64,000 nucleotides of DNA from Perna viridis (Eukaryota), in NCBI GenBank assembly GCA_037379345.1, contig CM074516.1:47281626-47345625 (forward strand), in the 5' to 3' direction. A model generated the notes under the pieces. The model was not told where the DNA came from. It saw nothing but the letters and a program-made list of their open reading frames with translations, and searched no databases. Positions 1 to 62,099 of the stretch are shown piece by piece. Every line of letters begins with the position of its first letter. Positions within the stretch are counted from its first letter, which is position 1. A program made the position numbers and the translations under genes.

Positions 1-279
1 TGGTATTTGTTTAACTTGTGTGGTTCCTTGAAGGCATATGTTGGATTATCTTTTTATAACAGTCCTTTTGATCAAGTGATACATGTATGTATTCCTGAAA
101 AGGTCAAATCAACAGTTCATAGATAATTATGTAACAACTGAAATCAACTATAGTGTTTTATAATACCAGATATATGTGCATGTAGCTGACAAATCAAAAC
201 AATTGTCATTTATAAAAACACAATATTCCCTGAGATGTTTACTTGACATTATTTATGGGTATAATTTGGTGTTTTTCAG

Positions 280-5433: not shown

Positions 5434-5655
5434 AGAGATAGACTATTCTGTCTGGAGAGATAGACTATTCTGTCTGGAGAGATAGACTATTCTGTCTGGA
5501 GGGATAGACTATTCTGTCTGGAGAGATAGACTACTCTGTCTGGAGAGATAGACTTCTGTCTGGAGGGATAGACTATTCTGTCTGGAGAGATAGACTATTC
5601 TGTCTGGAGGGATAGACTTCTGTCTGGAGGGATAGACTATTCTGTCTAGAGAGAT
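5434..5655. repeat. 22-bp minisatellite, about 10 copies
   Basis: Unit AGAGATAGACTATTCTGTCTGG; two units lack TAT. Confidence 0.95.
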
Positions 5656-31900: not shown

Positions 31901-34900
31901 GTGTTATCCACTGAAATGTGAATACATGTATTTCTAATCCAGGTTACTAGCATTTTCAGACACTTTATAATCTTAATTATAGTTCTAATCCAATTTACTA
32001 GCATTTTTTTTTAATATTGATGTCTTAATTTCTATAATCGTTACAAATGTAGATTTTTACCAATTTTCATTTAATTCTCAGAGGCACTTTATAAATTGAA
32101 TAACTGGGTAGAATGTATGATTTTTGTACATAAGTTCAAAGTCATGAATGTGTGATGCATATGGCACTCAATATGGCTGTTCCATTATTGATGTTAAAAT
32201 TATTCATATACATGTAGTTATTGTGTACATGTATTTAACAACATCTACTAGTAAACCAAAATGAAAATTAAATACAGGAACTAAACTTATGCCCTCTTCT
32301 TTGACGCTTTTTTCATATACTGATTTTAAGGTACCCTGGCATAAAGGTATTTCTAATCTACAATAATCATTGATCTTAAGCATACGACCAATCAACCATT
32401 CTTATCTTTCATTGATTGCCAATTTTTGGTATTCAATAATCCATTTAGATCAGTAAAAGTCACGACTGTAATCTTGATATCCCATTAATGTAGCCTAATA
32501 CGGTACTTGAGTTAAATAAACTACACTGAAATATGTTTTTGAAATAAAGAGCCAAGTGTACAGTTCATTACTTCTACAATAATGCTTACCAGTCTTTGTT
32601 AGTTACAAGTTTCATACAAGTATAATATGTGTTTGGAAAATTATATTTCAGCAGAGTTATATGCAATTCTTTCAAGATAAAATTCATCGGCTAGTACAAT
32701 TTAAAAAAAGATGTACAATAATCACACCATCATTCATAAAGCCATCAATGGATTTGCTGGGTCCTCCATCATGAGGATACATTACCCTACCAGTACACCT
32801 GGTTCATGCTTTTAGCTTTTGGTGGAGTCTTTCTATTTCATTGTTATATACATATTGATCAACTTTTGTATAGGGTCAGATATAATTTAGCTATATCATA
32901 AAGCAGAATTCATTGAAAGCTAGTGTGATGTCTCACTGGACTTAAAAATAACAATTAAAAGTGGTATTTATACATGTTAATTTGGCAAATATCTTTCTCC
33001 TGAAGCCTCATATTACATGTACATGTAATTAATTTTACTTTTTGTATGTTAGAAAAAAAATAAAGTAAGATGTTCTCATCTATTGAAATTACTAACCAAT
33101 TAAGGAATGACTGTTATATTTTTTTCAGTCTATGAAGAAATAACCTCAATTATGAACTGCACACCTGTGTAGCAGGTTATTTTCAAGTGTGCACCACGGG
33201 CATTGAGGTTATTTCAAATAGATCCCATAGAATATAACAGTCATTCCTTATAATTTAATTTTAGTACCAAAATTTGAAGAGTATATTATCTAAAAAACGT
33301 TTGTGACATCATTGAGTCACATTAAACTTTGGTCTTTGAGATGATGGACAAAATGTTTTATCCAATCAGAAAGCTTGTACCATGTACCTGAAATTAAGTT
33401 ATTACAAAGTAACATAATAAAAGTCATAATCTGTCTTGTCAGGTATACTGTGACCATATGATGCAAGACATCATTCTGAAACATGAGAAAATAGAGTTTG
33501 CCTCATGTCCACATGTACATGTGTACATGTATTCAGTTTGTCTTAGCTAAGGAACTCTTTCTTAGGCTATTAATGAGAGGGAGGTAATATTTGTATCCAT
33601 TTATAAAGTAAGGTTTAACTTTAGTAGCTTTGAGAAAATCTTTTTCAGGATTTAGAAAAGCATATAACCCATTTGAACAAGAATCATCGACATGAATTAG
33701 GTATAGAAATAGCTCGCCATCGTGACCTCCAGCGACAGATTGAGGGTATGCGGAAGGACAATGATGACCTACAGACACAATTAAAGGTAAGATAACGGTG
33801 ATATTGTCTGGCGTACACCAAATATTTTAGGGATTAATTTGAAGGCTTCGTTTATATTCAATAGTGAAATTTCAAAATGTGATTTATCCTTCAGGCAACT
33901 AAAATAAATGTTCAATTATAATTTGGACAATAAAATGAAGCATCTGTATTTGTCCATAAAATCACAGATTTTTTCTGTACTTCATTCGATATGACTCTTA
34001 CTTGATATTTAGAGCTTGTTAACCTGTCCCTTTAGTTACTGATAAAGATGTATTTCATTTACACTAGGAAAAGGTGAAAGCAGCAGAGTTAGCTAATATT
34101 TATAGTTTACGGAAGGGTAAGAAATTACCTGCATCTTATAGTGGAACACCTAATAGAACTCCTCCACCCATGAATGCAAGGAAAAGACACCCATCTCTTC
34201 ATGATCTAACACCAAGGGAGAAAGTGAAAATGTATGAAGACAAGAGAAAAGAAGAGGAGAAATTGCACAGAGAGGTATAAAAGTTTTTACAAACATGATA
34301 TAAATACAGGTGCAAAAACCCTGAATAGATTGTATATAGTAGAATTTGAATTGCATGATCTTTTGAGATTAACTTTTTGTGGTTAAAGCACTTTTCCTAC
34401 TTCAAAGTTCATCTCAATAGTTCTATCCCATTTCTCATTATTTGTAGATATTAGTATTTTTTCTGTTGTTTAAACAGTCAAAGTGTACATTTTAGTTTGA
34501 GATTATCAGAATATGCTTTATGCAATTAGCCAAATAAGAAAGTTATTTTCATGCTTTTAAGTCAAATTGCAAATTTTACAGATTTAGTTGTTTAGTATAA
34601 ATTTTTTTAAATGTCTGACAATGCAAAGTTGCTTCTCACTTAGATACCATTTTATTTTTATTTTTAATCTTGTACCATCAAATATCTAGTGTCTTTTGAT
34701 GTCAGTTTGGGAGGTGAAGGATACTAATTTTTAAAGTTAAAAAAGGCATCTTGGTTAAATATACTGTGTAATTTCCTATAGGTGTTTTGGACAATTAAGG
34801 AGGTTAGTTGTCTTTTTGGCTTCCACAATTAATATTTCACTCTCTGTGGTCACATAGGGATGAGGATTGCATGTTATGGAAGGTTGTGTACTTTAAGTTT

Positions 34901-37900
34901 GCCTGTATTCACTATTGAAGGTGTTATGATTTTTGCATGGGATAAGGTTTGCTTTTATTATGGTGTATCTGTTGTAGTCAGAACCCTGCACATGGTAGCC
35001 ATTACACATTATAAATCTACAGCTCAGCAGTAATGAACTCTGTCTACACTTTGTTAAACATATTATGTTACGTTTTTTCTTACCCAAACAGTTTCAATAA
35101 ATAACGAAAAATATTTCTTACCCTAATGGCTAAAGTAAGGTTAAGACGAACTATTTACACTAAAAATTTATTTGATTACATATCATTAGATGTACAGTTA
35201 AAGCTATGTTTTAATGGTACCACACACACCTTAAACCTGCTTCAAGCTTTACATTGTCTTTGCCTGTAGAGAGGGGATGGACCAAAAATGGCCTTCCAGA
35301 CAACAGGGAGTAACAATCGGGTCATTCATAAGTCATCACCCAAAAAACAACTGACTTATAGAGCTCCTCCTAAAACTGATTCAGACAACAGGGAGTATTA
35401 TGGTGATAATACATATAATAGAAATGATTTGAACTCGTCTGAAGACAGACGAGATCACCAGGGGTCAAGTTATATTACAGATCCCCATGGTTACAACACA
35501 TCACAGGAGGTACAATTTTGTTGGTTGTTGTTTCCCCCTTTGTCTTCCATGGCACACTTTGTTGTTATGTTCATCTCACTTATTTGTTGTGTTTATTTTT
35601 ATTTTTTAATTATCTGTATGCATGGAATTATAGTTATCTATTGGTATCAAAACACTTTTGTTTTGATATGAAATTTTTTAGATAAAAAAAGATATGGAAA
35701 TGACATGCAAGAAAGACCTCAACCTACATCTTCACAGTTGCCTTGTACAAATTGTATTCTTATGTTCAAATTTTTCATGTTCACAAGAACTTTGACATGT
35801 TTTATGAAAAGAGTCATATTGGCATTTTGAAAAATTTTAACTGTTGATGTATTTATTAGATCAACAAGAGTTCAGAACAGGGTGTATTCTCTAAACCAAG
35901 GATGTTTGGGAGTAAAAACAAGGATCAGTCATATGATCAGGTAGCTTTCTGTGTGGTCTCAAGAGTTATCTACCTTTACTAAATTTTTTGACAATATCTC
36001 ACTCTCATTATTTTTCTTTCTGAAAAAAAAAATTATGGACATTTTCAAGTTACAAATATTGAAATGAAATGACACATTCTGATGCATTGTCATGCACGTA
36101 ATTTGTTTTTTAGAATTATATGAAATAATTGAATAGACTTACTTACGTTCTGACATGGCTATAGGTTTAGACCTTAAATGTTTTATCATACAGTAAATGA
36201 TGCAAAATCTTAAAATACTTTTTCTGTAATCTTTTACCATTTCTAATAATAACATTGCTTTTATATGCTATTTAGTAAGTCTATTTTTTTGCATGATTTT
36301 GTTTTTATCAGAAACCAAGGCAATATGACAATGATGTATTTTATAAACCTATGAATCGCCAGAGGGATACAAACCCCTATCAATCTGTATATGACAAGGT
36401 AGAAATCTATGTGTGGTTCCTCTCAGTCCTTTTGTCTTGTTTCATCGATGTTAGCTGTATGTACTATTAATTAACCATATTCAGAAACAAATAGACACTG
36501 TTATGGTTTGTCAGAGTTGCAGTGATTTAGCTTGTTCATGCAACTTTGTTGTGATTTACATGATTGAATTTGTTTCTAGAAATTTTGATTTGATTTGTCA
36601 CATCTTGATCTTCTAACATGCTTCCCTGTCTAATGACACTGATGTGGATTAGTTTGTTCTCTCACATCTCCCAGCTTTCTCACATTTCAAATAAAGATGA
36701 CCTTGTATATATGTCCTTCAAACATGATTTTCCATCTATGAAATCATTTAAGTACTTGCATGATTTTTTGCTTTAGAAGAAAGATCCCCATTCTGACTCT
36801 GTGTTCTCGAAGCCACCTCTACACAGGAGGGGAGATAACTCCAGATTTGATCAGGTACCGTGGAGTACTAATAATTTCACAGTTCATGAGTTGAATCACT
36901 TAATTTGTGTTTTAACTCCTTTGTATCAAATTTTCAATTTAGTTATCACTGATTAAAAACATTGTTACTGATTTGATTTGTCTTAGATGTGATTTGAATT
37001 TCAGAAAGCAGATAGAATTTTGTTCTGATTTTTATACATGTATATAACCTGTCCTTTGATAGACTTTTTATGATATACTGCTGTCTCTTTCTGTTCACCT
37101 GTTCACATGTATATGTCAATATACTGTACAAAACTTTTTAAGTAATACTTTAAAGGATTTTAATGATTTTATGAGATAATGTTAGTCTTAATTATTTTCT
37201 CTTTTTTTTTTTGAAGGGTGTGTGGAATATAGTGGGGGTCAAGCTTGTTTTCAGAGTTATGGGTCTCGTAACACAGAAAGAGGGGAATAATTTTAATATG
37301 TGCTTTAAAGAAGCTGTTTATTTGTTTTATTTGTCCTTTGGTATGGTAGTTTATACTGCAGTTTAATTCTTCATTGTAGTGTAACTTTGTATGAAGCTTT
37401 AGATAGATTATACTGTGAGTGACTTTTGTCTTGGCCTCATATTAAATATCTGTCAACTGAATTAGAGGGCATCCATGTTTTATTGGCAAGAATGGAAGAA
37501 GTCATTAATTTATTTAATGAAGAATAACCTTAAAATTGTAAAAGTATTGTTATCCTTTATTTGTTTTGTTTTCAATGAATACAGGGAAAGGGGGCATGCT
37601 GGGTATGTGCAATATTTTACTCAAGTAATTTTTTTTTTACCTTTTTAATAAAGTTAGAAACTAGTGTCACCAGATTGTGTCAGCTTGTTGAAGTGGTAAT
37701 GATACTTTATAATAGAGAAATATTACATGCTAAGATGTTATATGATTTTGCATGATATGTTTACATTACACTTTAAGTTCGACCGATGCTTAAGCCTGCC
37801 AAGCATATATTAATCACCAATATATGTATGTGGACCAGTAGATCTCCGTGCATGTTTTTTTAAAGTACCTTTCCTTTCTTCCAGTAATGCTGGATCAAGC

Positions 37901-40480
37901 TAAGGCCATGTCATCATTTATTTGTGGATAAGACTGTCTTGTGGAATGTAAATAATATTTTTCTTGAAACTTATTTCATTTTCTCAAACTTTTCTCTTTT
38001 CGATAAATAAGGAAATTATCTAAATTAGATTTTACTGCAAGTATGATAGTATGGCAATATTTTCTTGAAAGTGAAAGAAAGTTCCACTGTTTTTTGTCAG
38101 AAAAAGCAAAGAGCTAGTCGTCAAAAGGAAAAAATCACTGCATCATCTACCTTCCTCACAGAGAGCCATGAATACTATCCCTCTCAGCCCTCAAGTGACC
38201 AAAGTCCTAAGGTACATCTTTGTGTTCTCAGTAGTCTCCCTTTATAGCATGTATATGTATATATCTTTTTAATTCTTGCTGTAGATTTTAGTATGGATAT
38301 AAGCTTTCCAAGTCATGTTGCCTGTAATATTTGTGCTTCTCTCTGTCAATTATCTGTCATTTTTTATTACACTGTGAGTGTTTCTGATTAACTTCTTGTG
38401 TTAGGATTTGACAATTTTGTTTTCATTCATTGAATTAAAACATTTGATAGATGTGACACTCTATCCTGTCAAATACTTGCTGGTAAGCCTTTTGAAATGT
38501 TTTGAGACAGATTGAGTGGTAAATAATTCTGCTCCCTGCCTGTGGTAAAAAAAATGGTCTAAATTTACTGAATAGAAACAAGAAAAGAAAAGAATGTGAT
38601 TCCATATTGAGAAATAAGTTGATATAAAAAGTGGTTTGGTGAGAACTGAAAAAAAAAAAAGAAAAGCACGTATCTACCGAACAATAATATTGTCTTAAAT
38701 GTCCAGTGGTATTCATTGTGTTAAAAATAATGCTAAATTCCCCTCCCCCTACACACATACACAAACCAAAAACCATAAAAACAAATCAAATGAAAAATTA
38801 CAAAAATACACACAAGTTAGATAAGTGAACTTTTCACACACATAATCATATTTAGCATAGTCACATACTGACCACATATCTTAATTGTTATTACTCTAGC
38901 TTTATGTGTATGTTTGCCTGTCAATTCTTAAGTTAGAGTTTATAAATGCTGTGTTACTGTAACATATTTTTAGTTAGACACTATGTTGTTTTCTTTTAAT
39001 ACATGAATCTTACAATTCTATGTCACTATATAATATTTTGATTGAAGTTTGTTTGACATGAACAGAAACAGCAACACTTTCTTAATTGTATACAAGTACT
39101 GTTAGCACTACTCTTAATATTTTGAATTCTCTATGAAGCATTTAGTTACATTCTAACATCTATTACACATATTTAATGTTTATTCATTTCTTTCATCCAT
39201 TTATGATTCTTTTCAGTAATGATAGTATGTACACACAAATGATAATTCAAGTTTATGAAAAAATAAGAGGGCAGCAATATAAATGAGCTGAAATTTTTTT
39301 TTTATTAATATTATTTAAATCACATTTTCAGAATCAAGAACGCCAGAAGAGAGAAAGGGAGGAACAACAGAGACAGAGAGCAGAGGAGGAAGAGCGCAGA
39401 AGACAACGAGAGCGGGAGGAACAAGAAATGAGGGAGTTAGAACAACTGGAGGTTACAAGGAGACAAAGAGAAGCAAGAGAAAGGGAAGAGCAACGAAAAC
39501 GTGATCAGGAGGCAGAGGATTGGATGAAAAAGATGGAGAATGAAAAACGACAGAGAGAAGCGGAAGAACAACGGGTTCGTGAGGAGCAGCAGCGTAAAGA
39601 AAGAGAAGAGAGAGATAGAAGAGAACGTGAAAGACAGGAACAGGAGAGAAGGGCAAGGGAAGAGAAGGATAGAATGGCAATGGATTCACAGCTGGCAGAG
39701 GAGAGAATGAAAAAGGATGAACTATTAAGGAAGTTGCGCATGATTGATGAAGGACAAAATAAAACAGAGGAAAAGAAATCCTCTGGGGGTGAACTATTTT
39801 TTGCTACCTCTTCTAAAGCTAGGCGAGATAGTGAAGGTTCAGCTACATCTAGCAAGAAAAGTAGTTATTCTTTTACCAAACCTGTTGAAAATATGCATCA
39901 TGGGAAACCTGCCAGAGAGGATGTTACAGTTCCTTACATTGAACGGCAAAAGAAACAGCAGGCTGAGTCACCAGTCAGCGGCTATCAGCCATCATTTGGT
40001 CTTAGTAGTGGAATAACTGGTACAAATAAGAAGACAACCAGAAAGTCAGGAGGTCAGGTTATTTTTGGTGATTTTGAAAAAGAGGACAAAACTGTCAATA
40101 AATCAACCAATAAAAAGGGTGACTTAATGGCAGAATTGTTTGGCAATTCTTCAAGCAAACCAACACGAACAACAGAACTTGATAATGATGATATATTTAA
40201 ACCTCCTGTAAGAAACACAAAAACAAATGCAACTAAAACATCAGGTTTCCCATGGGAAGATGATAAAAAATCAACTACTACATCACACAGGGGTGAGCGA
40301 GCGTCCTCTTTATTTGGAGGAGGAGGTAGTGGCATATTAGACGATAATGAACCTTCTGTTTTTGATTCATCAAAACTGTTACCGAAAAGAGGCAAACAAA
40401 CAAGTACAACATTCCAGACTAAGCCTGTAGTGTCAGCAATAGATCACATGGATGATGATATCGAGGAGGTCATTTTGTAG
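28919..40480 (+). CDS. LCA5: Lebercilin (LCA5/LCA5L family) ciliary coiled-coil protein, about 910 aa if all exons are included
   Basis: Exons 28919-29045, 29922-30439, 33649-33786, 34068-34274, 35270-35509, 35860-35940, 36312-36398, 36777-36854, 38101-38211 and 39332-40480, all GT-AG and in phase. Lebercilin-domain motifs QRMLSSKNLRINELKNQ, RQEKALNKFENEESDLPQLLQRHNNEVRTLR, EKVKAAELANIYS, GYQPSFG, KKGDLMAELFG and the C-terminal DDIEEVIL. Confidence 0.92.
30688..31006. repeat. 53-bp tandem repeat, 6 copies, in an LCA5 intron
   Basis: Unit TGCACTTTTGGCACTGTGATATAACATTGGAGCCTTAAGAGCTGTGCTATTTA. Confidence 0.95.
31470..31913. mobile_element. Decayed MITE
   Basis: CAGTGGATTCCTGTTAATCACAT ... ATGTGATTAAGTGTTATCCACTG inverted ends. 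Confidence 0.5.
33101..33250. repeat. Fold-back (hairpin) element
   Basis: 20-bp perfect arms TAAGGAATGACTGTTATATT/AATATAACAGTCATTCCTTA, with inner arms AAATAACCTCAAT/ATTGAGGTTATTT and TGCACAC/GTGTGCA. Confidence 0.8.
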
Positions 40481-44442: not shown

Positions 44443-44873
44443 TGTCAAACAATGGTATTCATGGTTCAGTCAAACAATTGTATCCACAAGTCAGTCAAAC
44501 AGGTTTCATCATACAGTCAAACAATGCTATCCATGGTTCAGTCAAACAACAGAGTTCATGATTCAGTAAAATAATGGTACCCATTGTTCAGTCAATCAAT
44601 GGTATTCATCATTCAGTCAAACAATGGTATCCATAGTTCAGTTGAACAAAGCTATCCATGGTTCAGTCAAACAATGGTATTCATGGTTCGGTCAAACAAT
44701 GGTATTCATAATTCAGTCAAATAATGGTATCCATGGTTAAGTCAAACAATGGTTTTTCATGGTTCAGTCAAATAATGGTATACATGGTTAAGTCAAACAA
44801 TGGTTTTTCATGGTTCAGTCAAACAATGGTTTTCATCATTCAGTCAAACAATGGTATCCATGGTTCTGTCAGA
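44443..44873. repeat. 25-bp minisatellite, about 17 copies, between the LCA5 and GET1 3' ends
   Basis: Unit CAGTCAAACAATGGTATTCATGGTT. Confidence 0.93.
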
Positions 44874-45324
44874 CAGATGTTGAAGAAACTATACAATCAA
44901 CAAGTTTTTTTTCTAGTTTTATTCATATTTAAAAGAAGTAATGGACATGCTTTTAAAAACAGTAATGCAAAGACATAGCTACGATAATAACTAAAACTAT
45001 TGTAACAAAACTGTATATCATTCTCAAATGTAAAGGGGAAAACTAGAATGGAAGCATCAATCAATGTAAACATAACTAAAAATCTCTTGTAGTTTAATTC
45101 AATGATTATGCAGTATTCTTAAACAATCACATAACAGCGTGTGTATCTAGGATGTCTCCTCTGAAAATACATTATAGATTGCACAACCATACAAGTATTG
45201 AGTCATCTCCCTTGAAATGAATATTTAATAGGACATTGACTGACATCTGAATACTAGATACTGTAGTAAGACTGATGGATGGTCATTCTGTGAACACACT
45301 GTGGTGGAGTTATCGCTAGTAGTG

Positions 45325-48300
45325 TCATTGTATCAGCCTCTTTACTCTGTAGATTGTTGAATTACAAACTAAAACCCAGCATCCAATACCTAAACCACCT
45401 AAAATGACATGGAGAATTAATACAAAGAAAACCAATAGCCTGGGTAACAAAAGGAAGAACTTCAGTATGTATATATATATACATGTCTACCATTAATAAA
45501 ACACCAATAAGTACAAAACCTTATCTTGCTTATCTCGTACTTAAAAAAAGAGCAAGATTGTTCGGGGTTTTTTTTATTCACAATTAAAATAGAGATTTAT
45601 AAATTATTCAGCTTTATGACATGCCACAGAATGCAGAAAACATATTTACAAAAAAAAACATTACAATTCTACCATTTGTGAGCATTTTATCAAAGATATT
45701 GTAGTGCCCCAAATGTAATATTTCTTTGTTATATAATTAGTGATTGTTAAATATGATCTCTTATTACCTGACACGCCAGTGGGAAAAGCTATGATTTTCT
45801 GGAAGGGATAAAACCATTCTGGATGGAACATAATTAAAGGTTCACTTCTATTAGAAATCATCAAGATGATCATAACTAAAGCCTGCAAAAAAATTGAAAA
45901 ACTTTGAACAAGACACAATTTATTTTTTAACTCATGGTAAATTTTTATTATGCATAAAATGATTTCAAATCTTGATGGTAAAAAAATTTGTATGAATAAA
46001 TGAATTTTGTGTCTTTTGGGAGGAACAAACTCACTACAATTGGGCAGGTTACAGATCCTCTGATAATGACCTGTTCAGTTCAACCAGTAAAGATGACTTT
46101 GGACAATCAAGTATCACAGTAGATCTTATATGTACTATGACCAATTTCACCCTAACAGCAGCCAGTCTACATTTTAATACAATTCAAACTGGAATGACTG
46201 AAAATATTTATTCTTCTGGTAACAACTATTATTAATTAGCTTGACCACTTACAGTATGTTTATTACAAGAACATGTAGCTGATATAATTTTAAATACCAG
46301 TTGATTTATATAAACAATTTTAATATGATGTGCTCCAAAGGGTAAAGAGTTGATAAATATGCTGCCACCATCAAAGATTTATGATGGTCTTATTTCCAAT
46401 TTCATAGGTAAGTTTCACTCAATGTCACTGATGTAAGAGAATTTTGGTCCATAACGGTTCCAATTTTGTGCAAAACAGAGACTGTGTCTTTCATAAACAT
46501 GAGGAAATTATTTCTTTTAGAATAGGAATAATACATGGAAACTCTTTATCACTCCTTAGGGCCTTTCTGGCCATTTATTTCGCCTTTTTTCCCCCAAGAG
46601 AAAATGCTATCGCTTGGTGTAACAAAATGCGACATAAGTGGCCATCCTGTATTAAACCAATGATGAAATGAAGTTTCCATGAATTGTTTCTTAATTACCT
46701 GTAAAATATAAATGGATATTTTTACACCAACTCCAACCATTGCACACTTGTTATTTCTATCGCTTGCTGAAAAAAAGTAATTTAAAAACAATTATTCAAA
46801 ATACGAGAAAATCTCATGGTTCCCACATCCTCAGCTACAAACTGATAGTAAACATAGAAAATCTCATGGTTGCCTTTCTTACATCCTAAGCTACAAACTG
46901 ATATTCTCATGTGACATGCTTCAAAGCTCTTTTGACCACAGCCATGGTAAAAAAAGTGACCAATACATGACCAACATTCTGTGCAACTCATAGGCTGCAT
47001 CTATTCACAAAGATAAATCAAAATAAATCACAGAAACTCAAATTTATCTTGTTTATCACTCCTTCGGGCCTTTCTGGCCATTTATTTCGCCTTTTTTCCC
47101 CAAGAGAAAATGCTATCACTTGGGGTAACAAAATGCTGGCCATTTATATCATTATTTATTTTTATTAAATAAAGTAGGAAACAGGACAGGTGAACTGGTA
47201 AGGTAAAAATCCTCCCTTATTCTAAACTATCTAATGCTGAAAATCTATTAAGTTCAAATAACACTAATATGTTCAGATTACTTTGTTCTTTGACCTCTAC
47301 CAGTAGTTTATCTATTTTTCTCTGCAGTTTGGCATGTTTTGCAAATTCGTCCACCATACTGACTCCACCCTGCTCTGCTTTTAAATCCTGAATCTGTGAT
47401 CTGGTGTTTAACTCTGCATCACTGACGGAATAAATTTTCTTACTCAACTGAAAAGGAGAACATGTGTATATTATAAACAATTTACATGTCTGAATAAGTA
47501 AAATTAAAAAATGTACATGTCTTTTTTCAACTTACATGTAATAGATGTCATTCAAATTTTAATATTCATACATACAAAAATACTTTTAATACTTTTACTT
47601 TAGAAGTCATTCATTCATTAAGGCAACTCTGCCTTTCAGACCCGCCACATGGTTTGATCCAGTAGTACTCACTTCTGGTCAAAAGGCATGCATTTTTTTT
47701 ATGACTAACATTTACAAAGACATTTTTAAAGCATAAGATAAATTATTCTAGTGAATATTAAGAATCTGACACCCTGGGGTAAGGTTTAATGTGGCCACTG
47801 ATCCGTCATGACCAGGTACAAAATATAGGCTGCTTCAAAATAGTCACTTAATAAACAAACTGCATGATATAATCAATTAATAGTTATTCTGGTTTAAAAT
47901 AGTAATTTAAATGAATTTTCGAACACATACTGGTAAGTATTGATCATTCATGGTCTTTCTTTATATTTGTACAATTTTTTACAGGAAATTGCAGAGGTTC
48001 CGTCTCAACTCGTGGGTGAGATAAGGAAATCTTGCATGTAGCTAAATACAGGAATTTTCTTGTCTCTTTTGTGAGAAAAAAGTGTGAATTTATGCCAGTG
48101 ATTTGTACTATTTTGAAAATTTTAGTGATCTCTCTTACAACTAGTCCAAATAACTACATATATGCTGTCTTGGTAGGCTAATGATAATTTTGCTTGGTTG
48201 AGATCCCTGACTGGCCTGAGGCATAAACATCAGATTAAAAACTTCATGTTTATCTAGACTATCGTACATCTGATATTTTGCATATCTTTTAATCTAAATA

Positions 48301-50269: not shown

Positions 50270-53200
50270 ATGGACACTGGATCATCTGTGTCAAAAGTAA
50301 TGTGAAATGTTTAAATAATGGAATTATCGAAAGATTTGTTTTTTTGTCAGTTTAAAAAGTCTGTAACTTTTCCTGTTTTCCACAAATCTATTTTACACTT
50401 ACAAAATGTAGTTACAACTTACAGGATGTCAGGATGTGCGGCACAAAACACTACAGTACACGAAAGGACATCTATCATTTAACATGGTGGTACCTTAATG
50501 AAAAGAGGTTAATATACTGTACCATAATAAACAAAGATATCATCACAAAATTTCATCTTTTTGTGCAGGCCTTTTTTTTCAGAATATCGAAAGCTTTAGT
50601 CATTCTTGTGTGAGAAAATATTTCAGATAATCTGTTGTTTACAGCATCGTGGAAAGGCATTAAATAAAACTTAAATGTACATTTCATATGAATAAAGCAC
50701 TATTATGCATGCATGTTTTCAAGACAATCCAAATAGCATACCTGAGATTTGATGAAAAAACTCCAGCCTTTAAGAATCCTCAAAAATAGAAAGCCTTTTA
50801 CACCGGCTCTTATACTTAATCAGGGACTATATATACTTTACATATGTAATTTTACATGTAAATGTTTTTAATATTGAAAAAATGCTGATTCGGCAGGGCC
50901 ACCTTTACTAGAAACACAACTCTAGCATAGTGTAGATATAAATATTTTGAAATAAGTATATTTCCCTTGTGTTGCCTTGTGAGATTCTATTTTTAGCACA
51001 ATTTCAACTCCAGACAATTTTATCTCATTATTTCATAGTTACATGTAGTATTGGTCTCTGAGGAGTTCATTGGTAGCAAAAATGATATTTTCTAAATAAT
51101 TAATATTGCCAACAAAATATAGTGACACAAGTACTGTTTTTTTTTTTTTTTTTAATACAGTATTTGGCCAATTGGGGAAACAGAATTGCGATAAGGTGAC
51201 TTGTGTTTCCATAGAAGAGCGTCTTTAGGGTCAGAGTCATAGCAAAACTATATTGACTGCGTCAGAAAAGTAATGATGTCCCTGAACACAATTCAAAGAT
51301 ATTGTTTGGATAGCTTGAATAACCGAAAACCTTGGTATTAACGGAAAACCAGGTGTGTATACCTGAAAACCTCAATAAAACTGTTTTTTGGGTAGTATAA
51401 TTGCTTACTTTGTTATTTAAACGTACATGTACTTGAAGGTTTTTCATAAAAAAAAATTAGTTATTCATTTAATTATTTCAACACTTTCTAGCTACCCAAT
51501 ATAAGTATAATGATATGGCGTCAGTACTTAGAAATTAATCACAGTGTTCTAGGATTCCTATTTCCCGTTACTCGGGGCAATTGAAATTTGGGTCAGGGAA
51601 AGTTAGGTACTTAGTTACACTTTCCCGAGGCAAGTGGAGAACTTCATATGCTGTAAAGATTTGTTCTGTTAGGAAAGCGGTCATTGACTGTGGGAAAGTT
51701 GATTTTGTATGGATTTTTCCCAAGGAAACCTCAATTTTTGAAAAATCCTAAAACACTGAATCATGTATCTTTCGCAAGCCATATTGATGATTAGAAAGTT
51801 GGAAAGTGTTGTAATATGCATTAATAACTATATGCATGGTAGGAAACTCATTAAAATTCTAGCCAGTCCTGAATACAATTTTTCAATATACTTACTATAT
51901 GGCTATATAGATTTTTGCTAAATTTAGCCAGTTCTGCCAAAAACAACCAGTCTCGGACTGGCAGGTAGGCTACTATTTCTAACTCTGCTGTTTGTTTCAT
52001 AAATAAAACTTAGTTAATGTATATTTAAATAAAGTAAGAAGCAATTATACCATGAAAAAAACATACTTATTGAGGTTTTCAGATAAAACAGGAAGATTAT
52101 TTGAGGGACAGAAATAATGTAAAATTTTATAAGTCTTGCTGGTATGATTATTAATTACACATGTGCATGCCAGTCATTATTTATCTTTAATTTTCAGGGA
52201 TGTTTTGCTTATAAAGGAAAGAAGAAAAGGGTAAACCCAGGTATTGCATACAAGTCATTATCATATATTCTCCAATTTAAATACAATTGTATCAGTATTC
52301 TTTTATTTTCTCAGTGAAGATTGAAAAAAAGTAACAAGTAATGTCCACTTTCTGTTTTAATGTGTTGCAGCACATGCTTCTGCCTCTCAGATTTTTCAGC
52401 AAGCTTCTTGCGATGACATGACATGCCTTTTTATGTAAGAGAATGTTTTACTATGTATAAATTGCTTGTTTTCTATCCTTTGGCAGCTGACTATTTTAAA
52501 GCCTGTGAATATTCATCCTCCTATAGACCTAGACAGTCTATCTGTGATCAAACTTGGGAAGACATTGATCAAGAAATACAGGTCAGTTGATATTTGTTTT
52601 AATGTTTTAATGTTCCTCTTACTGTAGATACAAAATGTACACATTTTACAAATACTTTTATGACTATCATGCAGTGCTTAAATTTAGTCTTGTATAAAGT
52701 AAGTATCAATTCACTGCATTTTATATTTAATTGTTATTATTCTCTGCTGTTGTTTTCTAAACACAAGAAAAAAGAAGGATTATTTGGCCAAATCAGTTTG
52801 GTTGCTGGCTTGTCACTGATTTTGGCGAATCAAATCATGCTCTCCCATTACATATATGTATGATTAAAAGAGCCTGCTGATGTTTAGATGGGTGGATATG
52901 GGAGAAATATATTACAAACTTAATCATTAGGTAATTATTGATATAATGACAACCACATAGAGTATCCCAATTTTCACATTGCCTTTTTTTCTGTAGATTT
53001 TGCGGTCTGATTTGAATTCCAAGATATTTGATGATTTACTAGCCTTTACTAGCAAATGTCATGGTCATTTTCACCTGAGTGAAGATCAGAATCACACAGA
53101 CTCGTTAGTAACTGAAATACCTACTGCAGCTTTAGTAACAGGTCAGTTGGCAATAAATAAATTCTGGTGAAAATTAATCAAGTTCCTATAATATGATCTT

Positions 53201-56200
53201 TTGTATCAGCTTCTGTCCAATTAAAAGCCCCTCCCCCCACCCATCACCCCCATGTTCATTTGTACATGTATATCAAATCAGATTATGTACATTGGTAACT
53301 TGTATTGGCTTCTGTTACATGATAAGTTCCTTTACATGTATGTATATATTAGATTTTGTACAATGATAAGTTCCCTTGTATTGGCTTATTTTACATGATG
53401 AGTTCCCTTGTACATTTATATTAAATGCAAGTTCTCTTGAATTGGCTTCTGTCTCATAATAAGTTACCTAACATTTTGATATTAAAGATTCTGTTCTATT
53501 ACATGTATTTGTATCTTAGGCACTATATATTTCTCTTACTTTCCAATGATAGGTTCCCTTATTTGTATGCTGTTATTTGATTGTATAGATCTTGTGTTGG
53601 TTTCTGTGCATTTCTCATCTGTGTAAATTTATCGTCAGACACTTGCGTTAACCAAACACAATTTTCTGGAAATGTTCTGTACTGCTGATTTTCCTGAAAT
53701 CTTTGAAGGTCTGAAGTAAAATCTGTCAATGGCTGATATAGTTAATACCACATGTATGTTATGTGTATGTTTGGCATACAGTCATAGAATGTATAAAATC
53801 TAGGTTAACTGACTATGTGCCTGTTAATTGTTCATTATAAAATTTAAGCAGGGTTAGTTGTATTTTAAATAGGTGTGAACACTCCAGACCATGGTGTAAT
53901 GTTTTCAACATTGGTGGAACTTCTCCATGAAAGAGTTTCTCCATTGGTGGCCATATTAAAGTCAAAAGATTGTAATAAAGTCAAGAATGTTCTCACAAAA
54001 ACCTTAGGCCAGTTACTACAGAATCCTGATTTGGTAAGTATTTATAGGCCAGTTACTACAGAGCCCTGATTTGGTAAGTATTTATAGGCCAGTTACTACA
54101 GAGCCCTGATTTGGTAAGTATTTATAGGCCAGTTACTACAGAACCCTGATTTGGTAAGTATTTATAGGCCAGTTACTACAGAGCCCTGAGTTGGCAAGTA
54201 TTTATAGGCCAGTTACTACAGAACCCTGAGTTGGCAAGTATTTATAGGCCAGTTACTACAGAACCCTGAGTTGGCAAGCGTTTATAGGCCAGTTACTACA
54301 GAACTCTGAGTTGGCAAGTGTTTATAGGCTAGTTAATACAGAACCCTGTTTAGTGTATTTTAATTATTCTCCTGTTCAAAGTTTTATGGAAATAAATATA
54401 AGTTTATACCTCATGCAGCAATAGGATGTGAAGTATAAACAGTTTGACTGGTTACTGGTTAATCAGAATTTAGTCATTTGGAGAGTACTGATGGCCTCCC
54501 AATGACTAAAAAAACATTGCACAAAGGCTCAGAATGTGTTATTTGCTGTTATGGAGGATGCAATTTTTCTTCAGTAGTTCTTTGTTCTCAAAGTTTATTT
54601 CAGTTTTCACACTAAGACGGAATATGATAATCTATTAACTGTATTCCCATAAATGTCCTTTAAGATTAATGACATCTTGTTGATACTAAAATCTTAACGT
54701 GGATATATGTATATTGCAGTTCTCGGAAGATGAGGATGAGACAGTTACCAGTACCAAGAGTCTTCCATGTACACTGTCTACATTGGCTTCATGGTATAGG
54801 CATAAATTTAAGGTGAATATGATTATTGAAGAAGTAACTTAAGTTTTGAACTGTTAAAATGGTAGGGTGTTTAAAACTTTCAAAAAGAGGTTGGGGTGTT
54901 TAAACAATGCTGTATCAGAGATTTATGATTCATGCCTCAATGTTGATTAATACATATTAATTTCTATTGGACAAATACTGCTGTCTTGCTTGTGCTTGTC
55001 CTAGACTATCAATGAAGGACAGTTTTTAAAAGTTATTTAGAATACTAAAAAGTGGAGAGATGAGTTACCAGTGCATTTATATCAACTATTTATTTCATTC
55101 AGTTTCTTTACTATTTCAGCCAAAACAACATCATAGTCCCACCAAGAAAAGAAAATCAGTTTCAGAGTATCAGCAATACCCACCTATCATTATAGTCTTC
55201 CAGGATATAGAGAGCTGGATACCTCATGTACTGCAGGATTTCATCACAGTTTGCAGGTATTGTTGCAGTGCATTCATAATAGTAAATACAAAAGGATCAC
55301 AGTGCAAATTCATGAGAAATACCCTCACCTAAGTTCACCTCCAAATTTTATTGGGTTTCACTTTGTGTGTTGCCCTTTTAGGGTTCTTTGAGTTGTCTTG
55401 TCAAACAATTTCCCTGTATTTGTATCTGCAGTATTGGTACTTTTATCTATAAAACTCAGTATATAAATATTTATTCAATTTTCACAATTTCTGACTGGCG
55501 TGACCAAAAGTGTTCCAGTCACTAGAGACTTTTGCTCTCTTCAAATGGCTGATTTGAATACAGTTGTAATGTCATGGCAACCAGGTTTTTTTTTTTATTA
55601 TTTATACCATTAGGCATAAATACAAAATTAATGTAGCTCAGTTTTTATAGGTGCCAAAAATTAGTTTGGTATGGAGATAAAACAGAATCACATTTTGTGT
55701 CAAACTATATTTCTTCACTCTTATTGGTTGAATTTTTAATTTTTAAACCCTCGGCAAGTCTCCAGCTTTAACTTTGAAATTTAATAATCTTGATTGTAGA
55801 AATACCAATTAACAGTGCAACAGGTTAAATCTCTTCTCTAAAAGACCAATGTCAATGAAACCACTTCAATAAAATACATGTACTTGTATGGTCTGGATGA
55901 TACATGTACTATCCAAATATATGGTGGTCTTCTATGAATTTCTCTATAATAGATTTGAGAGGATGATTGTATCATTAGATTAGAAATGCTTTTCATTTTC
56001 ATGTATATTGATGTTCTTCGTTCAACATCAGGCTTTGTTCTATGTATAAAATACCATAATGACAGTACTAATATCATTTTTTTTTACTTCTTTGTAATGA
56101 AAGTTTGAGGTACCAGTATATACATGTAGGGATTACTCTGTATATGTACTTTATTAGCCATTGAATGAAAGTTGACGATACATCAATTTAAACTTAGGTT

Positions 56201-59200
56201 TGGCATCAGATTTGTTTGATAGAAGATAATATTGCTCAATGCTCTGAAAAGACATCTAAGAGGTTTACATGTTGTAAGTGGGTGATCATTCAGTGGGCTA
56301 ACTAAATTTGTTTTTTTTTTGTTTTGTTATCAGTAACTACATCCAACAGCTACCTATTGTGTTTGTGTTTGGTATAGCCACATCAGTTGCAGCAGTGCAT
56401 AGATTATTACCCAATGCTGTCTCTTCTATGTTGTGTATGGAGAAATTCCAGGCTCCTCCATCCACAGAGTATCTTACACTTGTTATAAACCAGGTTGGTA
56501 TAATTTACATCACATTTCTCAGGAATCAGGTTAGTTTACCTTAAATGGTTTCAGATGGTTTCAGATAGTGCTTTATAACCATTATTAAAAATTTACTAAT
56601 ATTAAGATTTGTTTTGAAGTGACTCTAGAACTTTACACCTCATAGTTGGAAAGTTCTTCATCTTAAATTCCTTGTTAGTGAAAGCTGCTTCAAAAATGAC
56701 TACTACTTTAATCATTGATTGAAGTGGTTATATACTCAACTAAGTTACCGCCAGTTCACAAATACAGAATATTTATTTAATTAACATTGTGGAAAAAATC
56801 GTTCCTTTAACAATCCTTATGTGTGCATACTGGGAAGAATCATAGGTCATGCAATGTAATTTCTAGAATCACCTATGGAAAACATACTGATTAGTACTCA
56901 TAATTTTGTTTAATAGGTAGAATACACAAAAAAAAATACTGTCTTTGAAAATTAAAACATTTTACATTCCATTACAAGTGTACTTAATTGTGTTTACCAA
57001 CATGGTATGATATGTAAGAATTACTGTCTGTCTGTCTTTCATGTTTTGACCTTTATACCAACTATTTTGATATTATGCCACATGTTAGGGAAAGATGATT
57101 AACGGATTAACACACAACACAGCCAATTGTCAGTTTTAGTTCAAATATAAAGACCCATCCCATCATTACATATTTATACATTTATAACTGCTATGAAATA
57201 CATGTATATCTTCTTTTGAGGTTGACATGTATTCAGAGCCTTTGTCATTATATTATCCAATATGTGATCTATGACATACTTTGTAGATTATAATGACACC
57301 CAGATATCCATTCAAGTTGGGCCATAGAGTATTTCAGCTGCTTCTTGATATATTTCTCTACCATGACTTTTCTGTACTTAACTTTATTAAAGGATTACAG
57401 GTATGAATTGTTCAGTAGTTTTAGTTTCTGATAAGTCTGTTCAATTAATCACACATTCTTGTCCTAAAATGTATAAAATATCTGCCATATGCCTCTATCA
57501 AATAATCTGATATATTCAAAATAAGTCTTTATATAAAATGTGTTTTGTTTGTATCATCTAAATAAAAATGATAATAATTTATTCTAAGAGTAACAACTTG
57601 ATATTCTGGCGACAAAGATTTTAAGTGAAATGTTCACGAATTCAGCAAACTTCTCCGAATAATTTCTGCAAGACTTTTGTGGTTCGATTAAATAAAAGTA
57701 TAATGTTTGGTTACATTGGAAAGATTGAGGCTTTTGAAGAGAGTCTTGAATCATGGAAATCATATGTGGAAAGAGTTGAACAGTACTTTAAAGTGAACAA
57801 AATAGAAAATGATGTGAAAGTAGCTGCATTACTTAGTCTTATCGGAGGTAAAACTTATACCTTACTGAGAAACATGACTAGCCCAGAGAAACCCGTGGAT
57901 AAAACATACATAGACCTTGTTAAGATTCTGGAAGATCATTTGTCTCCAGAGCCTCTTCAAATTGCAGAAAGACATCGATTTCGACAGCGTACCCAACAAG
58001 AAGGCGAAAATGTAAATGCCTACATGGCCGCACTATGGAAGTTAACTAAACATTGTGGATTTCAAGATTTAAACAATACTTTGAGAGACCAGTTAGTGTG
58101 TGGATTAAAGAACCAGCAAATCAAAAAGAGACTGTTGTCCGAAGCAGGCTTGACTCTTCAGAAAGCAATGGAAATTAAATTAGCAATGGAAACAGTCGTA
58201 AAAGATGCTGACGACCTGCGAACACGAGAAACAGTTGGACTAAATAAACTGAAATGCAATCAGTTGTTCAAACAAAGTTCTCAAAAACAAACAGGGTCCA
58301 AGTGTTATAGATGTAATGGATTTAATCATCGTGCAAACAAGTACGGATTCATAGATGCAACTTGCTTCAAGTGTAAAAAGAAGGGTCATATTCAGAAGGC
58401 TTGCAAGTCCACTGAGAGACAATATGGAAACCAGTTCATGCGATACGCGAAGATGACTTAACTCATGAACTTGACAATCTCGGCATCAACACAGTTAGAG
58501 ATAAAAGTGTAAACCCTATCTGGATTGAACCTATTGTCGGTGGAAAGTCAATTAAGATGGAATTAGACACTGGTTCCACACTATCAGTAATATCTGAGCA
58601 TGATTTTCATGAAATATATGGATCTAAAGTGCCTTTGGAGGACACCAAGGTGACATTACAGACATATTCCGGTGAAATTTCATAACCATTAAGATATGCT
58701 AAAGTAGCAGTGCAGTACAATGATCAGAAATTTTCACTAAAACTGTACATTTTGAAAGCTGGTTGTCACCCGCTATTTGGTCATGAATGGCTCCAATCAA
58801 TTCAACTAGACTGGAAATCGCTTAAATCGTTGAATAAGATCGTCAATTTGACACCGCCAAGGTCGTTGGAACAAATGCTGAAAGCATACCAGACCGTATT
58901 TGATGAAGGACTAGGTAAAGTGAAAGGTATGACAGCTAAGTTTAATTTCAAACCAGACAGTTGCCCAAAAAGTTCCTTACCTCTTGAAACCGAAAATTGA
59001 ACAGGATTTACGAAATCTTGAAGAAAAAGGAATTACCAAATCAGTGAAAAATAGTGAGTGGGCAACACCAATTGTCTCGGTAATAAAGAAAGATGGAAAA
59101 ACTGTTTGTATTTGTGGTGACTTTAAGGTCACAGTGAACCCCCAACTTGCAGTGGATCAATATATCCGTTACCTAAAATTGAAGATATCTTTGTATCATT

Positions 59201-62099
59201 AGCAGGGAGGACAAAGTTTTCGAAAATCGATTTACGAAATGCATACCTGCAGTTGGAGGTCGATGAAAATCATCAGAAATACCTCACAATAAGCACAAGC
59301 TTGGGATTATTCCGCAATTTGGCAGTGCACAATTGATCAAATTCTATGTGGATTAAGTAGTGTTCAATGCATCCTTGATGACATGATAGTCACAGGTGAA
59401 ACTGAGGAGCAACATCTTGCTAACCTTGAGAATGTGTTGAAACGATTAAGTGAATATAATCTAAGAGCCAATCTTGATAAGTGTCAATTTTTCAAAGAGA
59501 GTGTGGAATATTGTGGTCACGTTATAGATTCAAGGGGATTGCATAAAATGTCAGATAAAGTTGAATCAGTGCTAAACACTCCAACACCTGAGAATACTAC
59601 TAAGCTAATAGCTTTCCTTGGATTGATAAATTATTATCACCGATTCTTACCTAACATTTCAACAGTGGTTAAAACGTTAACTCGACTGCTTGAAAAAGAT
59701 AGAAAATGGAGCTGGGATAAGCAATGTGAGTCTGCATTTCTCGAAGCGGAAAAGTTAGTGATATCCGACTTAGTACTATGTCATCATGATCCAAAGAAAG
59801 CGATCCGTCTTGCTTGCGATGCTTTGCCATGCTTTGCCATTCGGTGTTGGAGCCGCCCTTTCACATATGGGAGATGAAACTGAGCGTCCGATAGCATTTG
59901 CATTTCGTATGCTGACAAAATTTGTGCAAAACCGTTCTCAAATTGACAAAGAAGCGACTGCAATCATTTTGGGAGTCAATAAATTCCATACATACTTATT
60001 TGGTAGACATTTTACATTGATAACTGATCATATGCCTCTTGTGTCTGTTTTCAACCCTAAAAAGGGCATTTCATCAACTACAGTTTCCCGACTTCAGCGT
60101 TTTGCACTATTTCTTACTGGCTATGATTATGATATTGAATACAAAAACACTTAACTTCACCAGAATGCTGATGGGTTTGTCGCAACTGACGTATAAAAAT
60201 TCAGAGGACACTAAAGATGCCGTGGATTTGTTCTACACTGAACAAATAGAACAAGCTCCGATTAATAGTGCAGCCGTGCGAAGAGAAACCAATCAAGAAA
60301 CTGTATTAAGTAGAGTGTATGAGTTCATTATGACAGGATGGACAAAACCAGACGAAAAGTCAAGCATATTATACACGTCGTGACGAGCTTACTGTGCACC
60401 AAGGATGTATACTATGGGGAGTATGTGTCGTTATTCCGGTTCAACTTAGAAAGGAAGTGTTGGAATTACTACATTCAGGATACCCTGGTGTTGTAAAAAT
60501 GAAAGCTATTGCAAGAAGCTATGTATGGTGGCCAGGGATAGATGCCAATATTGAACATTTAGCTAAACAATGTAAAGGATGCCAGATGTTCACAAAGAAT
60601 CCACAAGCTGTGCCATTGCACCCGAGGGAATGGCCTACCACACCGTATGAAAGAATACACATTGACTTTGCAGGACCTTTTATGAACACTATGTTTCTAG
60701 TAATAGTCGATGCACATTCTAAGTGGCCTGGGGTGTTTATAATGAAATCAACTTAGTCGAAACAAACAATTGAAATCTTAAGAAAAGTATTTTCCAGAAA
60801 CTGAATTCCAAAGCAAATTGTCAGCGATAATGGTCCACAATTTGTGTCAGATGAATTTCGAAAATTTGTTTTATCAAATGGTATTAAACACCATTGCTGC
60901 ACATCGTATCACCCCGCTACCAACGGATTGGCTGAAAGGTTCATTTAAACTATGAAACAAAGTTTGTGTGCCATGTCGTCTCAATCAGTTTCACTAAATG
61001 TAAAATTGGCTCACTTTCTGATAACTTACCAAAACACGTCACACAGCACAACAAATAAAACATCACAGATATATGAGTACATTTACCTGTTACACCCTGC
61101 TCCAGTTTCTAATGATTTGTTCCTGAAAAAGATATACCAAAAATATTCAGTAGTGAAAAAACATCTGTTAATGTACTTTTGCTGGAAAAATCTCAGTTTA
61201 AAAGAAACTATGTATGGTATTATTCTTATTAGATTAACTATTACTTACATATTTTTTTTTTCAGTTTTGTATTCTAGACCATTTTTTCTCCTTCCCATGC
61301 AGTCGTATATTCTGTTGTCATGATGACCTACATTCCACTACGAAGGGACTTAATCATCAAGATATAGAATCTATCAGAATGACCCCTTCTTTTATGAGGT
61401 TAGATGTAGTTTTTTATACAGGTTATACCAAGCCAGGTTATGCAAAATAACCTGGTTTGCTCAAAGAAGGCCAACCAACCAATTAGAAGCTTGTTACAAA
61501 TCAAATTAAATTATATATACATAGACTTGAAACATGTATTGACATAAATTATTATTATAATGTATATATGTTTATGCTGACAACTTTAAAAGTAATATTT
61601 GGCTTTATTCTTGTGTTATGTAAACTCAGACTACTTGTACTAACATGTATTTTTTGTCCTTTTTATATATAATTGTCGCATGACTTTAATTTTTTATCAC
61701 TAGGCAGTGACTGATTTTTGAATAGCATATTAAATGTGTGTATATGTTTCATTCGATTTGTGACATTTTTTAAGTTATTATTTTATTATGAATCAAAATT
61801 ACAATAATTTACTAGTTCTTTTTCTAAAAAGAGCAGTGAGAATTTCAACCTATCATTATAGATGAAAATGGCAATGATAATTTTTTTCATAGAAAACAAA
61901 ATTATGCTTATTGTAATGCTGAATTGAATTAGCTCATCTTGTATGTTTGAATGTTTCAAGACTTTCCAAATGCTTATTTTTCATCACTAATAAGCACTGG
62001 TAATTAATTGATTTGGACCTTTTATTTTCTTACAGATTTGTTGAAGGCTGTCAACCTCAGCAACAGATTGATCTCTTAGAAAATGATGATTATACAAAG
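50270..62099 (+). CDS. ORC3: Origin recognition complex subunit 3, first 11 coding exons (continues beyond the window)
   Basis: Exons 50270-50296, 52198-52240, 52487-52581, 52997-53141, 53873-54033, 54720-54812, 55120-55256, 56334-56493, 57287-57400, 61265-61398 and 62036-62099, all in phase. Motifs SSVSKGCFAYK, EIPTAALVTGVNTPDH, VLQDFITVC, LPIVFVFGIATS and IFLYHDFSVLNFIKGLQ. Confidence 0.95.
54005..54348 (+). repeat. 40-bp tandem repeat spanning the ORC3 exon 5 donor, about 8.5 copies
   Basis: Unit TAGGCCAGTTACTACAGAACCCTGATTTGGTAAGTATTTA; the first copy is the true exon end. Confidence 0.95.
57560..61050 (+). mobile_element. Decayed Ty3/Gypsy LTR retrotransposon (Mag-like) in ORC3 intron 9
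   Basis: PBS-like TGGCGAC at 57607; gag from ATG 57703 (MFGYIGKIEAF, two zinc knuckles CYRCNGFNH and CFKCKKKGHIQKAC); protease MELDTGS near 58557; RT EWATPIV..CGDFK and CILDDMIVTG; RNase H LACDA; integrase ERIHIDFAGPF, IVSDNGPQF, YHPATNGLAERF. Many frameshifts and stops, 3' truncated, no 3' LTR seen. Confidence 0.93.

Follow-up and report, generated by a model that had tools for sequence, protein, structure and literature searches.

A 40-bp minisatellite across the exon 5 splice donor of ORC3 in Perna viridis: history of the array and donor use in RNA

Introduction

Which splice donor is used when a tandem array sets seven further donors behind the authentic one? The question is raised by intron 5 of ORC3, a core replication gene, in the mollusc Perna viridis, where a minisatellite begins inside exon 5 and runs on into the intron. 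An earlier note on this DNA, drawn from the sequence, had proposed that perfect decoy donors compete with the authentic donor and tune the output of ORC3. Donor minisatellites that span an exon/intron boundary are already known from human F7, CBS IVS13, the interferon-inducible gene 6-16, lamin B2 and PDGF (PMC1557585), and the 'mirages' described in amphioxus are exon/intron-boundary minisatellites of Adh3 and the globins BflGb6 and BflGb9 (PMC3087553). Repeats at exon-intron boundaries have also been discussed as a source of new introns (PMC2812944). The array was analysed here within a window of 64,000 nucleotides (contig CM074516.1, positions 47,281,626 to 47,345,625 of the forward strand), and all coordinates below are positions in that window.

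Results

The host gene was identified as ORC3, as the earlier note had named it, from exon 5 alone, which scored 27 bits against the Pfam family ORC3_N (PF07034), above the curated cut-off of 25. The best matches of this exon were full-length ORC3 proteins, with a top cluster that includes named Mytilus members, as fits a host among the mytilid mussels. The gene lies on the + strand at 50270..62099, with coding exons 1–11 inside the window, and extends beyond the window. Exons 1–4 (50270–50296, 52198–52240, 52487–52581 and 52997–53141), exon 5 (53873..54033), exon 6 (54720..54812) and exons 7–8 (55120–55256 and 56334–56497), all on the + strand, join to give 288 codons with no stop, and the seven introns between them are all GT-AG, which bears out the exon 5 numbering and the acceptor at 54720 that had been proposed. 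Exons 9–11 (+) were placed approximately, at ~57290–57400, 61260–61400 and 62035–62099. Over exons 1–8 the identity was 78–87% to five full-length close relatives and 59–63% to five more distant bivalve proteins. Exon 5 is 161 nt long, ends at codon 157 with the residues ...GQLLQNPDL and is supported by RNA read depth and the exon 4–5 joint, as well as by tblastn. It is followed by intron 5 (54034..54719, +), a GT-AG intron of 686 nt whose first 315 nt are the array, and by exon 6, the first 30 bases of which reappear as the consensus of the loose ends in the junction reads described below.

Several other features of the window were recorded. Intron 9 of ORC3 contains, at 57600–61000 (+), the remains of an LTR retrotransposon of Gypsy-like type in the same orientation as the gene, with matches to a zinc knuckle, a reverse transcriptase, an RNase H-like domain and an integrase zinc-binding domain in separate, broken frames. 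A lebercilin-like gene (PF15619 on relatives) lies upstream of ORC3 at 28919–40477 (+), and NCBI models from Mytilus and oysters (P0015–P0017, and P0026 by its length) join lebercilin-like and ORC3 sequences into proteins of ~1,530–1,570 aa; these are probably annotation fusions, which show a conserved gene order. Exon-like stretches with minus-strand splice signals, found by eye at ~47300–48020 (−), suggest a short gene arranged head-to-head with ORC3, and a stretch of ~100 nt appears to be present twice, at 46470–46660 and 47040–47140, with near-identical translations. Tandem Repeats Finder gave five arrays longer than 200 bp in the window, and besides the ORC3 array further minisatellites lie at 5434–5657 (22 bp), 10839–11110 (20 bp), 30687–31007 (53 bp) and 44444–44875 (25 bp). 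The 53-bp array begins ~200 nt past an exon of the lebercilin-like gene and does not span the boundary of that exon. With minisatellites this common, an occasional one at the end of an exon would be expected.

The ORC3 array was placed by Tandem Repeats Finder at 54005–54348, with a period of 40, 8.6 copies, 95% matches, 0 indels and a score of 562, and a repeat of 40 bp × 8.6 is of the size found in minisatellites of the exon/intron-boundary class. When the array is cut in register, unit 1 (54005..54044) consists of the final 29 nt of exon 5 together with the 11 nt that open intron 5; it carries the authentic GT donor at 54034 and is the sole unit with a T at unit position 20. Units 2–4 form a proximal block (54045..54164) with an Asp codon and GT donors, units 5–8 a distal block (54165..54324) with a Glu codon and GC donors, and unit 9 (54325..54348) is a partial, decayed edge copy, a remnant of 24 nt that has lost its donor; all units are read on the + strand. 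In units 1–4 the TTG at the exon end is followed by GTAAGTAT, with donors at 54034 (authentic), 54074, 54114 and 54154, and in units 5–8 TTG is followed by GCAAG, with donors at 54194, 54234, 54274 and 54314. The make-up of the unit and the order of four GT then four GC donors agree at all eight sites with what the earlier note had read. Its further statement that the donor had been copied eight times is right in that the array holds eight donors, but only seven of them are extra (three GT and four GC), and the ninth, donor-less remnant has to be added. The splice signal is thus reiterated within the intron by three GT and four GC donors, as in other boundary minisatellites.

The GT decoys of units 2–4 are identical to the authentic donor from −3 to +8, while the GC donors of units 7 and 8 carry additional changes at +6/+7. 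Scored against the U1 consensus, the donors of units 1 to 8 match at 9, 9, 9, 9, 8, 8, 6 and 7 of 11 positions and unit 9 has none to score; the 9/11 of the GT decoys compares with 5–8/11 for six other ORC3 donors. Read-through past the first donor meets the in-frame stop TGA at 54067..54069 (+, codon 169). This is the first stop for all seven downstream donors and lies upstream of many later junctions, so that each of the seven would give a premature stop ahead of later junctions, as in AS-NMD and as had been claimed for any downstream donor.

The first 18 bases of the unit have eight exact matches in the 723-Mb genome, all of them inside the array, and two matches with one mismatch elsewhere, the controls giving 1 + 1. 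Exon 5 has a single genomic locus, at which 7/7 DNA matches fell. A dispersed repeat or a transposon as the origin of the 40-bp unit was ruled out by the confinement of all exact matches, and of the DNA matches, to this one locus.

Seven unit positions vary across the array. Two of these, GAT/GAG at position 26 and GT/GC at position 31, change together in 8/8 units, with Asp and GT in units 1–4 and Glu and GC in units 5–8, and because of this complete linkage the GC change is regarded as one event, in line with the suggestion that the GC block goes back to a single mutation that spread as the array expanded. A Val codon (GTN) follows the exon end in 8/8 read-through ORFs from related bivalves, seven of them distant and one the close genomic ORF P0054, and on this comparison GT is taken as the ancestral donor, which also supports the GT-to-GC polarity proposed for the distal copies. 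GC as the ancestral donor was considered, as the relatives share their Glu codon with the GC units, and was rejected on the same eight ORFs. The Glu codon occurs in five of the six closest proteins compared (P0002, P0003, P0004, P0024 and P0054, some of which may represent one lineage), and P0001 has Asp; the closest relative, P0003 (87% identical), reads QSPEL, which is the translation of unit 5. Judged by these sequences, the exon probably had Glu before it had Asp. The distal block would then be the older one, having kept the old Glu codon and gained GC, and the proximal block the younger, sharing the newer Asp codon of the exon; transfer of the Asp codon from exon to array is indistinguishable from transfer in the opposite direction. 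The repeat peptide continued in none of the eight read-through ORFs of relatives, and a metagenome scan for the array in relatives' DNA returned 596 pattern matches of which 0 were confirmed. The 8-nt donor holds three of the seven variable sites, an excess that is not above chance (P = 0.15).

The array was then sought in other samples. DNA contigs were compared from X5, X3 and X10 (two studies), leaving out X1 and X2, which gave the best array matches and are possibly the source of the assembly. Contigs of both the GT and the GC type were present in 3/3 of these DNA runs and also in X11, giving four samples from three studies, and since GT- and GC-type contigs recur in X5, X3 and X10, the concern that the array might be an assembly artefact is settled in favour of a real one. 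In both X5 and X3 a contig of the flank extends from intron 4 across exon 5 as far as 54054 in unit 2, the point at which the word graph built from the array of the window breaks as well. The X5 flank differs from the window by three letters and two gaps, and X5 is therefore another haplotype.

Word depth for the GC donor relative to that for the GT donor was 0.50 in the window and 0.54, 0.85, 0.78 and 1.38 in X5, X3, X10 and X11, respectively, values to be read with the reservations that copy number cannot be taken from contig depth, that X11 may be RNA and that nothing aligned spans the array; for X5, X3 and X11 one contig per run was recovered from bin depths for this calculation. The GT word depth was 3.4 times that of the flank in X5 and 4.7 times in X3, against 4 in the window. 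Mixed alleles fitted X5 and X3 better than a model homozygous for the window allele did, with many equally good allele solutions and hence no genotype. Together these depths weakly hint that copy number varies between samples, mainly in the GC block. A deletion of unit 4 elsewhere was also considered, as the contig for this unit is missing in 4/4 runs, but without unit 4 the surrounding depths are unbalanced, and we read the missing contig as a graph simplification in the contigs rather than a deletion.

To examine donor use, ~19–25% of the raw reads in each of three stranded RNA runs from one study (X21–X23) were sampled; these runs were chosen by species label and not by array genotype. The reads were aligned to 52894–54093, which comprises exons 4–5 and the first 2.2 units, and loose ends were reported only from at least three reads. 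A total of 49 reads fell on exons 4–5; 48 of them were at least 99% alike, one X22 read was 95–99% alike, and none fitted in two places. All 13 listed junction reads (4 + 4 + 5) leave at 54034 for exon 6, with loose-end consensus agreements of 1, 0.99 and 1, which shows that the terminal unit of the array spans a real boundary of an expressed gene. Junction reads counted per donor into 54720, the check that had been suggested, thus all fall to the first donor in these runs, none of which was NMD-blocked. Junction contigs from two other studies, in contig sets guessed to be RNA, leave at 54033 in 2/2 cases, and the authentic donor is therefore predominant in both kinds of data. Among the RNA-guess contigs of these two studies none leaves at 54073, contigs being liable to drop rare forms. 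X11 contained array contigs in the same run as a junction contig.

Read depth was 0 at 54054–54093 in 3/3 raw RNA runs, at the low depth of 49 reads, and the unproductive isoform was represented by 0/13 junction reads in these untreated runs. With no decoy among 13 reads, the 95% upper bound on the decoy share is ~21% of steady-state mRNA, which in terms of splicing events becomes 44%, 56% or 72% if NMD removes the products 3-, 5- or 10-fold; short-anchored reads from the distal donors may have escaped the count, as the aligned stretch ends in unit 3. The exon 4–5 joint was covered by six reads, and no loose end was listed behind exon 4 in a listing that starts at three reads. Predicted RNA folding, run with three window sizes at two temperatures, gave no consistent advantage for donor 1, and RNA structure was rejected as the selector of the donor because folding does not single this donor out. 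At position 54732 in exon 6 a G/A difference (Glu/Lys, codon 162) was seen, with A in X22, X23 and X11 and G in the window, X21 and X13; it is probably an allele.

Discussion

The extra donors of ORC3 are probably a tolerated by-product of the array, with the spliceosome committing to the first donor, any leak cleared by NMD and no regulatory role. The 40-bp minisatellite was likely born by slippage at the boundary of exon 5 and its intron: one tandem duplication of the boundary, an origin that the earlier note had favoured and that the analysis supports, may have been followed by expansion through slippage or unequal crossing-over. The older, distal block would have taken a single GT-to-GC change, and the younger, proximal block would share the Asp codon of the exon. 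As has been suggested for F7 in humans, the first donor may be picked by 5'-to-3' scanning or by commitment during transcription, and a small leak, if there is one, would be removed by nonsense-mediated decay in the mollusc; the array itself would have no regulatory role. Tolerance of the extra donors would then follow from commitment of the spliceosome to the first, the sole one seen in RNA.

The closest known parallel is the 37-bp VNTR of F7 intron 7 (Borensztajn et al. 2006, PMC1557585), the first unit of which also spans the boundary. Identical donors recur every ~40 nt in both genes, with 5–9 units in F7, and the first donor alone is seen to be used. In F7 identical donors 37 nt apart are described as silent, the next being used only once the first is mutated, and donor choice was read there as 5'-to-3' scanning (PMC1557585). 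The ORC3 reads would fit this pattern by analogy, with scanning and NMD carried over to the mollusc. The two arrays differ in that the F7 unit holds 4 exon and 33 intron nt against 29 and 11 in ORC3, where mostly coding sequence has been copied; half of the ORC3 copies have GC, unlike F7 as it is described; and every ORC3 decoy leads to a premature stop, whereas two F7 decoys do not (PMC1557585). F7 is a human gene with a mutational test behind it, while the mollusc core replication gene is known from sequence and RNA reads (PMC1557585). Lamin B2 and PDGF likewise use the true site only, with units (100 and 81 bp) longer than that of ORC3, whereas in CBS and 6-16 two pseudo-sites are reported to be used besides the true site, none being seen in ORC3 at low depth (PMC1557585). 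The HeLa constructs of Hodson et al. (2012, PMC3413131) resemble ORC3 in offering several strong U1-complementary donors to one acceptor, but duplicated strong donors at least 45 nt apart were spliced there almost wholly from the downstream site. Such a proximity rule (PMC3413131) would favour units 3–4 of ORC3 and counts against the first-donor reading; in ORC3 it is the upstream donor whose use was seen, despite the donors 80 and 120 nt further on in units 3 and 4.

This rule also gives weight to the view that the three GT decoys are used substantially, that their products are lost to NMD and that copy number sets the output of ORC3. The decoys match the authentic donor from −3 to +8 and, at 9/11 of the U1 consensus, exceed six other ORC3 donors; every decoy gives a premature stop with many junctions downstream; downstream sites are preferred under the proximity rule (PMC3413131); CBS and 6-16 do use pseudo-sites (PMC1557585); and the contig depths hint at length variation. 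We nevertheless consider a hidden leak of this kind unlikely, as decoys were used in 0/13 junction reads and 0/2 junction contigs with no depth past 54053, the hint in the depths concerns mainly the GC block, and the read-through ORFs of relatives have no sign of the array, which argues against a conserved device. The competition between decoys put forward in the earlier note accordingly found no support, at low depth, in the 13/13 listed junction reads and 2/2 contigs that leave from the authentic donor. It is very unlikely that the array acts as a heritable dial of ORC3 dosage through NMD-coupled splicing and at the same time, by unequal exchange between array and exon, swaps Asn/Ser and Asp/Glu in the coding sequence. 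Were a leak to scale with copy number, the dose of an origin-recognition subunit would be set by a polymorphic repeat, which is rare; these data give no sign of such a leak.

The fall in donor quality with distance, from 9/11 in units 1–4 to none in unit 9, might instead reflect selection that disarms the decoys from the distal end, favouring the GT-to-GC change, the changes at +6/+7 and the loss of the unit 9 donor, and downstream donors would be the most dangerous under the proximity rule (PMC3413131). Against this, the GC change is one linked event, the donor holds just three of seven variable sites (P = 0.15), units at the edge of neutral arrays are likewise left out of homogenisation (PMC3087553) and three perfect decoys persist, which makes selective disarming distinctly unlikely. 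The array could also be the seed of a new exon, spliced from donor 1 into unit 4 as an in-frame microexon of 12 or 21 nt (NPDL or LLQNPDL). Each GT unit offers a branch-like CTGAT (54029, 54069, 54109 and 54149, judged by the consensus) and three AGs, the unit-4 acceptors have 7–9/17 pyrimidines compared with 9 and 8 for the real acceptors of exons 5 and 6, ORC3 orthologues differ in length just after this junction, and intron gain is modelled for the mirages (PMC3087553). No microexon was seen, however, and what stands behind 54033 is exon 6 in 13 reads (agreement 0.99–1) and in 2/2 contigs, so that this outcome is highly improbable. Short-read contigs cannot give the number of units, which would leave room for an assembly artefact, but both donor types recur in X5, X3, X10 and X11 (four samples, three studies) and the units carry distinct, ordered variants; the chance of an artefact is negligible.

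The reading of the extra donors as a tolerated by-product also agrees with the amphioxus mirages, which like the ORC3 array are boundary tandem copies in an invertebrate and with which splicing is reported to be undisturbed (PMC3087553). A length instability that is only hinted at in ORC3, edge units outside homogenisation and a proposed route to new introns are counted as further likenesses, the difference being that the ORC3 case comes from a bivalve (PMC3087553). Among the papers listed by a literature search of limited coverage, none described this locus, an array of this kind in ORC3 or a bivalve example, and the array adds a bivalve and a core replication gene to the known cases of a boundary-minisatellite layout that has already been described. 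Its distal block seems to preserve an older state of the exon. The ORC3 array is a natural case in which identical strong donors resolve to the first, and since the diagnostic bases of the units allow reads to be assigned to donors, it offers a small test case for scanning, as in F7, against proximity, as in the HeLa constructs.
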